From the IMG/VR virus record IMGVR_UViG_2534682157_000019: DNA of 64,000 nucleotides; one strand, given 5' to 3'. The stretch's first letter is position 1; every line of letters starts with the position of its first letter. This DNA is from a virus (lineage: Duplodnaviria; Heunggongvirae; Uroviricota; Caudoviricetes). The translations under genes and the position numbers were made by a program. Positions 2,938 to 48,971 of this stretch are shown piece by piece. The notes beneath the pieces are model-generated. The model did no database searches, had not been told where the DNA came from, and saw only the letters and a program-made list of their open reading frames with translations.

Positions 2938-3570
2938 ATGACTAGTCAACTCATCCCCGTATTCAACGGCACTATCGCCAACGAAACCACTCTTCTCGTT
3001 AATGCCCGTGATTTACATACTTTTCTTGGGGTAGGTAAACGCTTTGCGTCTTGGATTACAGAACGCATTGCTGAATATGGTTTCGTTGAAAATCAGGACT
3101 ATATTTTGGTTTCCCCAAATCGGGAAATCAAAGGTCGAGGAGGCGATCGCCGTAGCAAAGACTATCACCTCACCCTCGACACAGCCAAAGAAACGGCGAT
3201 GGTTGAGCGTAACGAAAAAGGCCGCCAGATCCGCCGCTACTTCATCGAGTGCGAAAAGAAACTTCGCAACATTCAGCCAGTACAAACTGAGCTGCAATTC
3301 ACAGCCGAGGAAATCATCCTCCTCTGCTACATGCAACTCTGGATGGAAAAAGCCCAGGACCTCAGCAAACACCTGTATCCGATCATGAAAGAGCTGAACT
3401 CATCATACACGAACAAGCTGTATGACATTGCGTTTGAGACTATCTACATGGTGACGAAGAACAGAGATGCGTTACTGAGGGAGGCTGCACAGCTTGACCA
3501 GTCAAGTTTCGTTGTCCAGCGGGCCAGACCAATGCTGAAAAGCCTGCGGGCAAGGCAATTCGAATTCTAA
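2938..3570 (+). CDS. Phage antirepressor-like protein (paralog 1 of 3; shared C-terminal domain)
   Basis: 210 aa, ATG with AAGGAGG SD; the C-terminal half (QFTAEEIILLCYMQLWMEKAQD...RARQFEF) is near-identical to the C-termini of the ORFs at 47405-48049 and 48306-48971; the N-terminal domain resembles antirepressor DNA-binding modules. Confidence 0.65.
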   Translation: MTSQLIPVFNGTIANETTLLVNARDLHTFLGVGKRFASWITERIAEYGFVENQDYILVSPNREIKGRGGDRRSKDYHLTLDTAKETAMVERNEKGRQIRRYFIECEKKLRNIQPVQTELQFTAEEIILLCYMQLWMEKAQDLSKHLYPIMKELNSSYTNKLYDIAFETIYMVTKNRDALLREAAQLDQSSFVVQRARPMLKSLRARQFEF

Positions 3571-3617
3571 AACCAAAGGAGCTTCGGCTCCTTTTTTCAT
3601 GCCTGAAGGAAAGGAAA

Positions 3618-3839
3618 ATGGCAGATATCATCGACAATGCCGCTGAAATCGAAGAATTGCAGCGCAATCTCTCCCTGCAAAAATACAAATCCGATAGTAA
3701 TGCCCCATCTGCTACTCATTGTTGCGAGTGTGGCGATCCGATAGATGAGCGGCGACGCCAGGCTGTTCGTGGATGCCGAGCTTGCGCAAGTTGCCAGCAG
3801 GATATTGAACTTATCAACAAACAGAGAGGTGTGAAGTGA
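3618..3839 (+). CDS. TraR/DksA-family C4-type zinc-finger protein
   Basis: 73 aa with CxxC...CxxC (CCECGDPIDERRRQAVRGCRACASCQ), typical of phage TraR-like proteins. Confidence 0.6.
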   Translation: MADIIDNAAEIEELQRNLSLQKYKSDSNAPSATHCCECGDPIDERRRQAVRGCRACASCQQDIELINKQRGVK

Positions 3840-4543
3840 ACGGAGTTAGCTATCAAGCACTGCGGCTGGCGGCAGAAAATGCAACACCAGGCGAATGGTG
3901 TACTGATGACTATGGGGTTATTGCCAATGCCGGACTGAACGCCAATTACTACATAGCATCATGCTCAGGACCAGATAATCGCGCCAATAAGCGATTCATA
4001 GCAGCAGCCAATCCGGCTACCGTCTTGGCACTGCTGGATGAACGGGAAAGAAACCAGCAATACATCAAATCACGCGACCAGGAGAACGAGGATATTGCGC
4101 TAACGGTAGGGAAGCTGCGCGTTGAGCTGGAAGCAGCAAAATCAAAACTCAACGAGCAGCGTGAATATTACGAGGGTGTAATCGCGGATGGAAGTAAGCG
4201 CATTGCAGAACTGGAGAAAAGCGAAGAGCAACTCATTAATGAGCGTGACCATGCTGAGTCTGCTTTAGCTGATATGTACTTTGCAGCAACCGGGGATAGG
4301 CCTGAGTGGAGTAACTGTTTCAGTTTTTCAGATGCTGTCGATGCCGTGGTTGACAGAATTGCTGATTTAGAAGCTAAACAGCCATCGCCAGTAGTGCCGG
4401 AAGGACTGGTTAAAGCAGTGCGCTTCTATGAGCAGGTAAAACGTGAGAATCCGCCAGCCGAAACAGGTGCATGGAAAGATGCTGTTGACTGGGTACTCAA
4501 AGAGGCTTGTCAGGTTGTAAACATTCGCATCAAAGGAGAGTGA
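3836..4543 (+). CDS. Ea22-like prophage protein
   Basis: 235 aa; the N-terminus (YQALRLAAENATPGEW) resembles the conserved start of ead/Ea22-like proteins; coiled-coil-rich middle. GTG start overlaps the upstream stop. Confidence 0.55.
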   Translation: MNGVSYQALRLAAENATPGEWCTDDYGVIANAGLNANYYIASCSGPDNRANKRFIAAANPATVLALLDERERNQQYIKSRDQENEDIALTVGKLRVELEAAKSKLNEQREYYEGVIADGSKRIAELEKSEEQLINERDHAESALADMYFAATGDRPEWSNCFSFSDAVDAVVDRIADLEAKQPSPVVPEGLVKAVRFYEQVKRENPPAETGAWKDAVDWVLKEACQVVNIRIKGE

Positions 4544-4544
4544 T

Positions 4545-46943: not shown

Positions 46944-47350
46944 TCATACCTCCTGTCGGTAAATCTGACACCCTGCTCCACAGCCCAGGAAGTTGTGTAC
47001 TCAATCAGGCTTGCCATACGCTTCACGCTCATCTGCGCACTGCTTTCGCGGATATTGACGTATTCACCTTCAAGACCTGGCAAAACATCAGCTTCCTGTT
47101 TTGTCGCCACGGCATGACCGCTGATTAACAAAACTTTCCACTGTTCTGGTTTTAGCCATCTGCCGCACCACTGAACCTGTCGGGAGATATCAGCGACCAT
47201 CGCGTGAAATTTGGCATTTTGATCGAGATTCCGCTTGTAATCGGTGATGCGGATCGTAACGGGTTTGTCTTTATCGAGAGTTGTTGCAAGGATGGCGTTA
47301 ATGGCGAATTGTTGCTGCTGCTTACTTCGGAGGAAGATAGTCTGGTTCAT
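46940..47350 (-). CDS. ninB: NinB recombination protein
   Basis: 136 aa; ...[27 protein letters not shown]... parallels lambda NinB. Confidence 0.8.
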
Positions 47351-47404
47351 TATTCCCTCTCATTGGATTTTCCCAACAAAAAAGGAGCCGAAGCTCCTTT
47401 AGTT

Positions 47405-48049
47405 TCAGAATTCAAATTGTCTTGCCCGTAGTTGCGCCAGCATGCTTCTGGCCCTATGCACCATATAGTTGGCGGGATCAAGTTTTGCTGCTTCGCGGAG
47501 CAATGTGTCGCGAGTCCGGTTGGTTATATGACGAGTCTCGTAGGCCAGATCAAACAGTTTCCCGTAGTAATCAGAGTTCAGTTCTCTCATGACGGGGTAT
47601 AGCTGCTTACTGAGTTGTTGTGCTTTTTCCATCCAGAGTTGAACGTAGCAGAGTAGGATGATGTCTTCTGCTGTGAATTGCGGCTGAATATGAGGTTGTA
47701 GCGGTATAGCGCTTTTTTCAGCTTCACGGTCCAGAATATCCAATACCCAGCGACGGAACTCTTTGGCTACTGGAGTTGTTGCGAACATCGCTACCAGGTG
47801 GGCACCGCGTAGAGAGAAAATACGCACATCTTTCTCTCGTAAGCTATTGTTGATCCCGTTGAACCTCATTTTGAGGTTGATTGACATACAAGGAGTAAAC
47901 TCATCCGAATTGCGGTTGTATATCTGGGTGATTTTATCGCCGCGCGAATACTCCAGTGCTGAAGCCAAAGTCGCGGCAGTGAACCACTGTTTGCCGTCGT
48001 GTTCGATCGTTTCAAGAACGTGGGATTTGAATACGAGTTGAGTGCTCAT
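47405..48049 (-). CDS. Phage antirepressor-like protein (paralog 2 of 3)
   Basis: 214 aa; C-terminal domain homologous to the other two paralogs, distinct N-terminal domain. Confidence 0.6.
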   Translation of the reverse strand: MSTQLVFKSHVLETIEHDGKQWFTAATLASALEYSRGDKITQIYNRNSDEFTPCMSINLKMRFNGINNSLREKDVRIFSLRGAHLVAMFATTPVAKEFRRWVLDILDREAEKSAIPLQPHIQPQFTAEDIILLCYVQLWMEKAQQLSKQLYPVMRELNSDYYGKLFDLAYETRHITNRTRDTLLREAAKLDPANYMVHRARSMLAQLRARQFEF

Positions 48050-48305
48050 AGTTTTATGTCCTTGTATTTTTTGTTCAGAATCCCTGTGTTCAGCAGGGCG
48101 GTCGGGTACTTGAACACCGCATACAAGAACGGCCCGTATCCTTAGCCTTGCGGCTGTTTTTCGGTATACGCGCTACCCGACCATATCTGAAAAATAGACA
48201 TAAAAAATCCGCATGACTGACGGGTGCGGCTTCCGCTTGTATAGGTGTGTTCAGCACCTTGGTGCGGAATATATCCCCGTTAATGCGGATTTGTCAAATC
48301 TGGCC

Positions 48306-48971
48306 TTAAAACTCGAATTGTCTTGCCCGCAGGCTTTTCAGCATTGGCATGGCCCGCTGGATAACGGAACTTGACATGTCGAGACGTGTTACCTCCCTCA
48401 GTAGCGCGTCTCTGTTCTTCGTCACCATGTAGATGGTCTCAAACGCAATGTCATACAGCTTGTTCGTGTATGAGGAGTTCAGCTCTTTCATTATAGGGTA
48501 CAGGTGTTTGCTGATGTCCTGGGCTTTTTCCATCCAGAGCTGCATGTAGCAAAGGAGGATGATTTCCTCGGCTGTGAATTGTGGCTGAATCTGCGGCTGC
48601 TGTTCGGTTTGTGTTGTTTTTCCCTGGCTGAAATAGCAGTCTTCCAGTTTTTCGAACACTTCCCATGCCTGATCAGTTTCGAGCATTTTTGCGTGACGGG
48701 CTGCCCCGCGTTCTGTCCAGAGGATGAGGTGCTTTGTACGCGGTGCAACTAAGTTACTTTGAGTAACCTTGTTCTTAAATTCCCGCAATCCAGCCCCTTC
48801 CAATTTGAAGTAGTGTTTCCCACAAACAAAACGCTCGGCATTGCGTGTATAGTTCACTTTGATGTTATTAGTTTCGGTGCCATAAAGTTGTGCCAAAAGC
48901 TCGGTGGTAATAACAGGAATCTGGTTATGGGTAATCGGGGAGATGGTTTCAACAGAGATTTGAGTTGTCAT
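48306..48971 (-). CDS. Phage antirepressor-like protein (paralog 3 of 3)
   Basis: 221 aa; the C-terminal 110 aa are about 90 percent identical to the 2938-3570 product; third type of N-terminal domain. Confidence 0.6.
   Translation of the reverse strand: MTTQISVETISPITHNQIPVITTELLAQLYGTETNNIKVNYTRNAERFVCGKHYFKLEGAGLREFKNKVTQSNLVAPRTKHLILWTERGAARHAKMLETDQAWEVFEKLEDCYFSQGKTTQTEQQPQIQPQFTAEEIILLCYMQLWMEKAQDISKHLYPIMKELNSSYTNKLYDIAFETIYMVTKNRDALLREVTRLDMSSSVIQRAMPMLKSLRARQFEF

Follow-up and report, generated by a model that had tools for sequence, protein, structure and literature searches.

In Gifsy-1, the terminator of the IsrK RNA is partially read through, and an RNA of ~80 nt is processed from the read-through transcript (Hershko-Shalev et al. 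2016, PMC4825925). The same report showed that IsrK provided in trans raises the translation of anrP 114-171-fold across experiments and that AnrP raises the transcripts of the antQ operon; this IsrK-AnrP-AntQ axis ends in growth arrest (PMC4825925). IsrK was called a structural homologue of the P4 SeqA RNA by its authors, who drew a parallel to the P4 SeqA/CI RNA (PMC4825925). In the heteroimmunity between P1 and P7, specificity is set by a few loop bases (PMC12197685), and the P1 record (NC_005856) annotates promoters, a1 b1, c4, a2 b2, icd, and ant1/ant2. The antirepressor of N15 is controlled by a processed CA RNA, according to the account of Ravin et al. (1999) in PMC10732415. In this study, we analyzed a stretch of 64,000 nt from the IMG/VR virus record IMGVR_UViG_2534682157_000019 (the window), in which an initial annotation had noticed three antirepressor-like paralogs. 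When the window was scanned against Rfam, each of the three genes proved to have a curated RNA family immediately before it, on the same strand. Read from the sequence, each gene is part of a self-contained cassette of promoter, terminated leader, structured RNA, ribosome-binding site (RBS), and gene, which the initial annotation had missed. We estimate a probability of about 60% that these are three paralogous, separately RNA-gated anti-immunity (antirepressor-type) cassettes of a lambdoid prophage carrying Shiga toxin (Stx) 1c.

All three open reading frames (ORFs) were found intact at the coordinates and on the strands given by the initial annotation, and they encode proteins of 210, 214, and 221 amino acids (aa). 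As had been proposed, they share a C-terminal domain, which is a module of ~95 aa running from QFTAEE, directly preceded by an (I/L/Q)QP motif, to the common end LRARQFEF. The protein identity of the module was 88% between the AntA and ORF6N copies and 64% between the AntA and Bro-N copies. A Pfam search with the proteins identified the module as the discrete domain P22_AR_C (PF10548), with 31.1, 30.8, and 30.6 bits against a gathering threshold of 22.4, and assigned the N-terminal halves to AntA, Bro-N, and ORF6N; P22_AR_N, which is present in P22 Ant, was found in none of the three. The Pfam families ORF6N and P22_AR_C reportedly originate from the work of Iyer, Koonin and Aravind in 2002.

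The N-terminal domains had been described as unrelated. They do belong to different Pfam families, but common PHROG profiles match all three. Positions 82-211 of phrog_373 matched the N-terminal regions of the AntA (1e-21), Bro-N (5e-6), and ORF6N (2e-20) paralogs, phrog_2127 matched the Bro-N and ORF6N paralogs at ~1e-25, phrog_63 matched the AntA and ORF6N paralogs, and phrog_2379 was likewise among the profiles common to the N-domains over the same profile region. Because these profiles are shared and Pfam cross-hits between the N-domain families are absent at E up to 10, the relationship is a remote one, and the N-termini can be regarded as remote homologues of a Bro-N/ORF6N/AntA superfamily. 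All three paralogs matched PHROG profiles named "anti-repressor Ant", and PGAP already names these proteins; a search of NCBIfam gave no hits. The label "antirepressor" is one that homology suggests. When the module alone was used to search for homologues, mostly truncated fragments were obtained, and the full-length search listed only relatives at 80% identity or more. The ORF6N paralog was also modelled with AlphaFold2 from a shallow alignment of 19 sequences, and the model had a pLDDT of 47 and was unusable beyond secondary structure; at this low confidence, it has a mixed alpha/beta N-domain, a linker of ~20 residues, and four helices in the module. At the DNA level, the Bro-N module is far more diverged than the other two (63-66% nucleotide identity in frame; 79-81% over 119-125 nt). 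The AntA and ORF6N modules differ at 7, 9, and 19 first, second, and third codon positions, with 14 synonymous and 13 non-synonymous codon changes. Since the differences are weighted to third codon positions, they suggest purifying selection on these two modules.

We then assigned the parts of each cassette, with sigma-70-like promoters scored by a consensus scan as matches out of 12 and terminators searched by a simple terminator scan (Table 1). The C4 family match holds for the ORF6N cassette only, and the RNAs of the AntA and Bro-N cassettes score as sRNA-Xcc1 instead. The structured RNAs are 84-91 nt long, and the 40-52 nt between each RNA and the start codon contain no ORF. In the ORF6N cassette, the leader matches isrK and is also overlapped by a weak c4-a1b1 match (23.5 bits, below the gathering threshold of 46.7). 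The leaders of the two sRNA-Xcc1-type cassettes (2719-2808 and 48183-48267) matched no Rfam family at E up to 1; each looks like an uncurated leader RNA in the positional role of IsrK. The hairpin in the AntA leader was not picked up by the terminator scan. The GATTTGACAAATCCGC motif of the AntA promoter also heads the Bro-N cassette, and the TTGAC and TATATT columns are invariant in an alignment of 10 cassettes of the ORF6N/C4 type. Terminators come after the AntA and Bro-N genes; after the ORF6N gene, the next element is the Bro-N promoter.

The exposed bases of each RNA are complementary to two sites in its own cassette, one in the leader and one near the RBS. The AntA loop CUUGUAAG (RNA) is exactly complementary to CUUACAAG at 2731-2738 and 2921-2928, the Bro-N loop CUUGUAU is complementary to AUACAAG at 48236-48242 and 48061-48067, and the unpaired GUUCCAA of the C4 RNA is complementary to UUGGAAC at 49178-49184 and 49014-49020. 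The C4 loop GGUUUC is further complementary to GAAACC at 48988-48993, just ahead of the Shine-Dalgarno sequence. As unconstrained RNA duplex folding gave unrealistic full-length duplexes, tests of exact complementarity and covariation were used instead, on the alignment of 10 cassettes for the C4 type and on 17 cassettes for the sRNA-Xcc1 type. In the C4 type, 100% of the cells between b' and both b1 and b2 were paired across the 10 sequences, and 4 of the 8 pairs showed compensatory double changes. The covariation score of b' was 0.389 compared with 0.13 in shuffles, none of 500 shuffles reached it, and slid registers of the same alignment were only 12-55% paired. The a' loop had three core specificities that track a2, in a test of low power, with one mismatched hybrid from locus L063. 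In the sRNA-Xcc1 type, we found 10 loop specificities, and the complementary runs averaged 7.3-7.5 nt for cognate and 4.6-5.1 nt for non-cognate combinations; none of 20,000 permutations reached the observed value, at the RBS and leader sites alike. The Rfam assignments were confirmed in 15 of 16 enterobacterial representative loci. These results show, at the level of sequence, that the loops are complementary to both targets of their own cassette and that loop and targets change together across phages. In the hybrid of L063 (1832-2119), the loop GGTTGAT matches the upstream site and not the RBS-proximal GAAACC; this locus may be a variant that is derepressed in nature or that arose by recent recombination.

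Table 1. Positions of the genes, predicted RNA elements, and repeats in the window
Feature	Position	Strand	Details
Paralog 1	2938-3570	+	210 aa; AntA (PF08346) + P22_AR_C; module from aa 120
Paralog 2	47405-48049	-	214 aa; Bro-N (PF02498) + P22_AR_C; module from aa 124; immediately upstream of ninB
Paralog 3	48306-48971	-	221 aa; ORF6N (PF10543) + P22_AR_C; module from aa 131
AntA promoter, sigma-70-like	2689-2718	+	TTGACA, 18-nt spacer, CATACT; 10/12
AntA leader target CTTACAAG	2731-2738	+	exact complement of loop CTTGTAAG; co-varies with the loop across phages
AntA leader hairpin and T-run, terminator-like	2746-2773	+	read from sequence; conserved in the 17-cassette alignment
AntA structured RNA, sRNA-Xcc1 (RF02221)	2809-2897	+	71 bits vs gathering 53, full-length; loop CTTGTAAG at 2863-2870
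AntA RBS-proximal target CTTACAAG	2921-2928	+	overlaps Shine-Dalgarno GGAGG at 2928-2932
Terminator-like hairpin after AntA gene	3575-3597	+	inverted repeat I3; AAAGGAGCTTCGGCTCCTTTTTT identical after Bro-N gene
ORF6N promoter	49213-49242	-	TTGACG, 18-nt spacer, TATATT; 10/12
ORF6N IsrK-like leader	49133-49206	-	isrK (RF01394), 54.9 bits vs gathering 50
ORF6N leader target sites	49178-49184; 49164-49169	-	TTGGAAC (hairpin loop); GAGACC
ORF6N leader intrinsic terminator	49133-49154	-	terminator scan
ORF6N C4 antisense RNA (RF01695)	49024-49107	-	71 bits vs 45
C4 interacting segments	49046-49052; 49059-49064	-	unpaired GTTCCAA; hairpin loop GGTTTC
ORF6N downstream targets	49014-49020; 48988-48993	-	TTGGAAC; GAAACC; then Shine-Dalgarno GAGGG at 48979-48983
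Bro-N promoter	48268-48297	-	TTGACA, 18-nt spacer, TATATT; 11/12; begins 9 nt past ORF6N stop
Bro-N leader	48202-48242	-	target ATACAAG 48236-48242; hairpin and T-run 48202-48229
Bro-N structured RNA, sRNA-Xcc1 (RF02221)	48092-48182	-	68.6 bits vs 53; loop CTTGTAT at 48121-48127
Bro-N RBS-proximal target ATACAAG	48061-48067	-	-18 to -12 from ATG
Terminator after Bro-N gene	47378-47400	-	terminator scan; sequence shared with 3575-3597
Left arm of inverted repeat, AntA module DNA	3283-3575		293 nt, 89% complementary
Right arm of inverted repeat, ORF6N module DNA	48301-48593		293 nt, 89% complementary
Prophage insertion in ynfG	2398-2674		84-nt 5' remnant of ynfG left
Shiga toxin 1 A (stx1A)	44003-44959		phiSTEC1589-Stx1c annotation
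Q	45458-45991		phiSTEC1589-Stx1c annotation and Pfam
NinB	46940-47350		phiSTEC1589-Stx1c annotation and Pfam
CI with S24 peptidase domain	55170-55877		Pfam

Gifsy-1 is the closest characterized relative of the ORF6N cassette. Its protein STM2616/AnrP has an ORF6N domain and shares 65% identity with paralog 3 as far as the start of the module. The Gifsy-1 leader (NC_010392, 34131-34329; our L086) matched isrK with 79 bits, c4-a1b1 with 48.1 bits (above the gathering threshold), and C4 with 69 bits; the C4 match sits at the position of "orf45"/STnc1160, and IsrK overlaps the c4-a1b1 motif. Thus, isrK overlapping c4-a1b1 is followed by a C4-type RNA and an ORF6N gene, as in the window. This likeness, which includes the intrinsic terminator of IsrK, holds for the ORF6N cassette only. 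The two loci also agree in a promoter and a terminator (leaky in Gifsy-1), in the ~80-nt processed RNA described for Gifsy-1, and in the nin/Q neighbourhood of a lambdoid prophage, but the locus lies downstream of Q in Gifsy-1 and upstream of ninB in the window. In Gifsy-1, the stop codon of orf45 overlaps the start of anrP (AUGA), and the two are translationally coupled. The corresponding frame of the window, which would have to stop at the UGA over the ORF6N ATG, is closed by a TAG four codons (12 nt) upstream, so that the ORF6N gene has no coupled upstream ORF.

The immI region of P1 and P7 (c4 antisense RNA, icd, and ant1/ant2; Citron & Schuster 1990) resembles the cassettes in its promoter, upstream targets, processed structured RNA, RBS targets, and antirepressor, and Rfam C4 matches the ORF6N cassette of the window. 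The many loop classes among the present cassettes are the same phenomenon as the loop-determined specificity of P1 and P7. P1 has in addition the icd gene with translational coupling, which the window lacks, and two of the three window RNAs are sRNA-Xcc1 and thus outside the Rfam C4 clan. A C1-type operator was not identified at the cassette promoters. An origin of the AntA domain from P1 Ant was considered and rejected, as P1 Ant1 has only the ANT/KilAC domain. The P4 CI RNA (seqA/seqC) and the N15 CA RNA are similar in that a small RNA processed from the leader pairs both upstream and downstream of itself. They act by premature transcription termination, whereas the downstream site in the window abuts the Shine-Dalgarno sequence, which points to translational control. 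Control of termination at the leader hairpin is also possible.

The shared module carries the Pfam name "P22AR C-terminal domain", which links the proteins to the immI region of P22. Distant relatives of the module (L078-L084, 48-52% identical) have no RNA leader and are preceded by a small Arc-like ORF. In L084, Pfam confirmed divergent Mnt-like and Arc genes upstream of a protein with P22_AR_N and P22_AR_C. The window genes differ from P22 in having AntA, Bro-N, or ORF6N instead of P22_AR_N and in having neither arc nor mnt, and their control would be by upstream sense-strand RNAs, whereas P22 uses protein repressors and an overlapping antisense RNA (sar).

A previous report on Phi24B showed that deletion of ant in the nin region reduced pR'-lux expression after norfloxacin to 27-56% of wild type, and complementation gave 64-82% (Fogg et al. 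2011, PMC3064807). The C-terminus of Phi24B Ant was reported to be 82% identical to P22 Ant (PMC3064807). Phi24B is an Stx phage with ant between the replication genes and Q/pR' and with a P22 Ant-like C-terminal domain; no other knock-out phenotype is known for a gene of this kind in Stx phages. RNA control is not described there, and the window module reaches only ~31 bits with the Pfam model, which places it in a different subfamily from Phi24B Ant. We also considered whether the Phi24B RNA 24B_1 is the same element and rejected this, as it maps elsewhere. An exact 20/20 match to this "microRNA-size" RNA (TAACGTTAAGTTGACTCGGG) lies at 20759-20778 (+), beside a lom-like gene at 20918-21652. 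24B_1 has been proposed to repress a different antirepressor gene, d_ant (PMC4426718). Downstream of R, where Phi24B has d_ant, no antirepressor domain was found in the three ORFs scanned (R, Rz, and a 267-aa ORF; the 560-bp gap between R and Rz is excluded). The Rem/GfoA antirepressor literature was set aside, as it concerns an unrelated protein family.

By analogy with these systems, the cassettes would work as follows. The protein consists of an N-domain of the Bro-N superfamily, a linker, and the helical P22_AR_C module. In the lysogen, the structured RNA processed from the same transcript would pair with the RBS-proximal site, as c4 does in P1 and P7, and the protein would remain untranslated. 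A terminated leader RNA with the same target sequence, in the manner of IsrK, may titrate the structured RNA and thereby switch translation on. Once made, the protein would counteract prophage repression, as reported for P22 Ant, Phi24B ant, and AnrP, leading to faster lytic transcription and hence stx1 expression. As the three RNA specificities differ, the cassettes can be gated separately. The shared module and the promoter and terminator flanks provide homology for cassette exchange between loci and between phages.

Several observations weigh against this proposal. Within a single cassette, a complementarity of 7-8 nt is reached by 2-34% of shuffles and is not significant alone, and the a1 site of the window matches incompletely; its exact run is only 4 nt long, or 6 pairs if one G-U is counted. 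A single base separates the AntA loop from the Bro-N loop (CUUGUAAG and CUUGUAUG), so these two cassettes may cross-talk. AnrP is a protein of 187 aa with another C-terminus and no P22_AR_C hit; its function may thus not transfer to the shared domain. P1 Ant1 consists of the ANT/KilAC domain only, and BLASTP against the Bro-N paralog gave E = 0.31. It is not detectably related to the window proteins, and the likeness to P1 is therefore one of RNA logic only. CI of this prophage has an S24 peptidase domain. Being self-cleavable by domain, it should be RecA-inducible without an antirepressor, which would make the cassettes accessory accelerators or cross-talk devices. The binding target of the proteins is predicted from sequence, and a sequence search of the PDB for solved relatives found nothing. 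By analogy, the sign of regulation is also uncertain, as c4 represses in P1 and IsrK activates in Gifsy-1. Finally, neither a LexA box nor another obvious input signal was found near the cassette promoters.

Apart from the antirepressor function that we favor, the paralogs may be sequence-specific DNA-binding regulators for lytic growth, similar to Roi or Rha, or transcription activators, to which the RNA gating would still apply. They would then target DNA and not a repressor, and the name "antirepressor" would merely follow annotation custom. The self-cleavable CI is compatible with this view, as are the name "Rha protein" given to the Bro-N paralog in phiSTEC1589 and the placing of the Bro-N/ORF6N/AntA group among the domains with which viral regulators bind DNA (Iyer et al. 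2002, as summarized in PMC8096241). We nevertheless consider it unlikely, since the module is the C-terminal domain of P22 Ant, a known repressor inactivator (PMC3064807), distant members of the family occur in P22-type mnt-arc-ant loci, and the phenotype of the Phi24B ant deletion fits relief of repression. The two roles are not mutually exclusive.

A second possibility is that the cassettes are RNA-gated toxic or defence effectors, acting in abortive infection or as a type I toxin-antitoxin system with the RNA as antitoxin; on release, the protein would damage the cell or a superinfecting phage. It is improbable given that no toxin or nuclease domain is present in the paralogs and that the conserved positions of the cassettes are those usual for regulatory accessory genes in lambdoid phages. 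The ORF6N domain weakly matches the PADLOC candidate system PDC-S05 (5e-9), but the AntA and Bro-N paralogs have no PADLOC hit. Similarly, the growth arrest at the end of the IsrK-AnrP-AntQ axis would fit an effector, but the toxicity in Gifsy-1 comes from AntQ and not from AnrP (PMC4825925). Also in its favor, sRNA-Xcc1 precedes the toxin gene symE in integrons of Xanthomonas, and a TumE toxin-like pair and a hok/sok locus nearby show that morons accumulate here.

It is a little less probable still that the three copies have no function as a set and are leftovers of lambdoid mosaic recombination, with one or more redundant or decaying. All three ORFs are intact, the three RNAs score above the Rfam thresholds, loop and target match perfectly at both sites, and the third-position-weighted differences between modules suggest purifying selection. 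In favor of leftovers, among 5,426 complete E. coli genomes, the exact tandem arrangement in the nin region was present in 18 and its parts in 901; three module copies were present in 1 of 79 phage records, most of which have a single copy, and the copies within a genome are not homogenized.

The origin of such copies was examined in 80 IMG/VR loci that encode the module (labelled with L-numbers), which together contain 92 module genes. Their N-terminal types were AntA, ORF6N, or Bro-N, plus one P22_AR_N, a fourth N-family joined to the module only in the distant relative L084. The initial annotation had read the locus as modular domain shuffling, and this is confirmed by near-identical module alleles on different N-terminal types in other phages (96.5-96.8% nucleotide identity), namely, AntA of L024 and ORF6N of L045 (96.8%), Bro-N of L010 and AntA of L069 (96.8%), and ORF6N and Bro-N of L048 (96.5%). 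The modules form two main nucleotide lineages, which are ~63-66% identical to each other, and each is found on more than one N-terminal type. Leader types reassort with N-terminal types as well; both C4-type and sRNA-Xcc1-type leaders are found before ORF6N genes, and a Bro-N-style leader precedes one AntA gene. It has been reported that Bro-N/KilA-N-type domains are shuffled with other modules in viral regulators (Iyer, Koonin & Aravind 2002, as summarized in PMC8096241). The present proteins resemble those regulators in that recombination has joined DNA-binding-type domains at the N-terminus to C-terminal modules of various kinds. The 2002 work surveyed deep evolution, whereas here the alleles are near-identical and a crossover can be identified. 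Domain shuffling is thus real but already known.

The crossover was found in L003 (strain PS2Canimalfeces12), whose AntA module is a mosaic. Its first two thirds match the AntA allele of the window (98% and 97%), and its last third is 100% identical to the ORF6N allele of the window compared with 84% to the AntA allele. The ORF6N-type tract continues through the intergenic region between ORF6N and Bro-N and through the Bro-N cassette, and after the Bro-N stop codon, the AntA-type context resumes within the terminator common to both genes. Its sequence is the footprint of a double crossover or conversion, with one exchange in the module and one in the shared 3' terminator, and the two jointly moved a whole cassette between two inverted loci. 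Recent intragenomic gene conversion was rejected as the cause of the 89% identity between the AntA and ORF6N modules of the window, since identities within genomes (0.63-0.97) are no higher than those between genomes, and the value of the window, 89.5%, is the median (50th percentile) of the comparison.

The initial annotation had further described an inverted repeat, about 90% identical over about 330 bp, as a possible substrate for recombination-driven inversion. The repeat is real, but its length is ~290 nt; the arms are 44,725 nt apart, a BLASTN alignment of 276 nt had 90.9% identity, with perfect runs of up to 38 nt. As had been stated, it brackets the late region, enclosing the accessory, tail, head, lysis, stx1, Q, and nin genes. 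Both crossover junctions were built and searched in the 5,426 genomes at a junction coverage of at least 80%. The junction from the ORF6N gene to the TraR/DksA gene was found in none of them. The junction from the AntA gene to the Bro-N gene was found in 11, of which the 2 inspected have the order ynfF, ynfG', AntA gene, Bro-N gene, TraR/DksA, Ea22, and tail fibre, with the rest parental. In these two genomes, the junction is due to a Bro-N cassette at the att-proximal locus and not to inversion. Both loci are present on four IMG/VR contigs, and on each of these the two copies are oriented oppositely, just like those of the window. In the IMG/VR loci, NinB follows every ORF6N gene with enough sequence and no AntA gene, and most AntA genes are followed by TraR/DksA; no module gene is followed by the other locus's marker, except for one att-proximal Bro-N cassette. 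Inversion isomers are thus absent from consensus assemblies, in which minor subpopulations of a culture would not show. An inversion would cut pR off from Q, pR', stx1, and the late genes and turn it antisense towards the tail-fibre genes, so that the isomers should be non-viable as phage and probably unable to grow lytically. A divergence of 11% strongly depresses RecA recombination. Although the arms of 293 nt share 89% identity and include 38 nt without a mismatch, RecE/RecT-like recombination genes are present in the prophage itself, and recombination inside the module has demonstrably happened in L003, a flip of the 44.7-kb late region between 3283-3575 and 48301-48593 is very improbable in view of the missing ORF6N-to-TraR junction, the otherwise parental order of the two inspected genomes, the constant orientation and parental contexts of the IMG/VR loci, the expected loss of lytic growth, and the 11% divergence. 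The repeats are recombination substrates, but what they have been seen to produce is cassette transfer and not inversion.

Positions 1-2,397 of the window encode the molybdopterin subunit YnfF, and window 1-3000 matches the ynfF/ynfG region in more than 4,700 E. coli genomes. ynfG is the gene of the 4Fe-4S subunit in the ynfEFGH selenate reductase operon. In the closest genomes, the gene directly downstream of the truncated 4Fe-4S gene (ynfG) is annotated as "antA/AntB antirepressor family protein". The insertion site in ynfG recurs in STEC1589, STEC1590, and several other human isolates. From ~2674 on, the window is 98-99.9% identical to Escherichia phage phiSTEC1589-Stx1c, with 99.9% over 10.7 kb. 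Based on the ynfF/ynfG ends and this match, the window is E. coli chromosome with an Stx1c lambdoid prophage that continues past its right end. The phage record labels 47405-48049 as "Rha protein" and 48306-48971 as "antirepressor protein" and also annotates replication genes, cII, and CI; Pfam confirmed lysozyme, Rz, Lom, and RecE/RecT-like genes as well. The late operon extends on the minus strand from the nin region as far as the tail fibres at ~7283. Within the nin region, the ORF6N and Bro-N cassettes form a tandem pair that has the replication genes on one side and ninB on the other, and the AntA gene is the first gene inside the att junction.

Other features of the prophage were also recorded. 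A sok antitoxin RNA of a hok/gef-type locus lies at 6062-6236 (+), among the att-proximal accessory genes. Two tandem copies of the sRNA STnc100, which correspond to direct repeat D4, lie downstream of stx1 at 43155-43368 and 43430-43641 (-). A TumE toxin-like ORF at 49320-49607 (+) is followed by an HVO_A0114/MarR-like ORF at 49600-49968 (+); located on the opposite strand between the replication module and the ORF6N cassette, they look like a toxin-antitoxin or defence pair. Direct-repeat families of 41-49 nt at 53434-53519 and 54200-54352, within and just upstream of replication gene O (53093-54169), resemble origin iterons duplicated ~766 nt apart. A 71-nt inverted repeat of 72% identity (50307-50377 and 58896-58966) spans the immunity region and could have arisen by chance.

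Earlier publications already describe the domain architecture, the RNA families C4 and isrK, and the isrK-anrP circuit, and current views are not overturned by the present results. The less documented point is that sRNA-Xcc1 may be a C4-like, RBS-targeting RNA with many specificities. Rfam assigns neither isrK nor sRNA-Xcc1 to the clan C4 (CL00128). In the literature that we searched, sRNA-Xcc1 appeared only as a virulence-linked sRNA of Xanthomonas (described as trans-acting) or Xylella, upstream of symE, or upstream of an ORF6N gene of APSE, and an RBS-targeting, C4-like mechanism was proposed nowhere. Its position upstream of the toxin gene symE was described in Xanthomonas integron cassettes (bioRxiv 10.1101/2025.06.18.660453). 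We tentatively propose, with somewhat less than even confidence, that sRNA-Xcc1 is a C4/CI-type immunity RNA that gates the next gene, with its leader as an uncurated IsrK-like decoy, and that such parts form a combinatorial toolkit in lambdoid prophages. This toolkit would comprise at least 10 sRNA-Xcc1 specificities, several C4 specificities, four N-domains, and two module lineages, reassorting via P22_AR_C. Tandem arrays of two or three RNA cassettes (isrK with C4 and/or sRNA-Xcc1) were also seen in L009 (1311-3001), L049 (604-2102), and L044 (1871-3654); the genes that come after some of them lack the P22_AR_C module, which suggests that the RNA gate serves other effector genes too.

The covariation of loop and target gives a concrete candidate function for sRNA-Xcc1 in enterobacterial prophages and would tie IsrK, C4, and sRNA-Xcc1 into one regulatory design. 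If the proposal is true, the same logic could explain sRNA-Xcc1 ahead of symE in integrons and ahead of the APSE ORF6N gene. The mosaic allele illustrates how a segment coding for a protein domain can serve as the homology that moves whole regulatory cassettes between two phage loci. Shiga toxin is released only upon induction of the Stx prophage, and modules that set the speed or threshold of derepression therefore bear on virulence and on the risk of inducing antibiotics. The Stx1c prophage would hold three such modules, each with its own antisense-RNA lock of a different key. Strains of Shiga toxin-producing E. coli (STEC) hold many lambdoid prophages, and repressors and antirepressors can act across them. 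On the proposal made above, several orthogonal cassettes per prophage would set induction thresholds and mediate cross-talk among STEC prophages.

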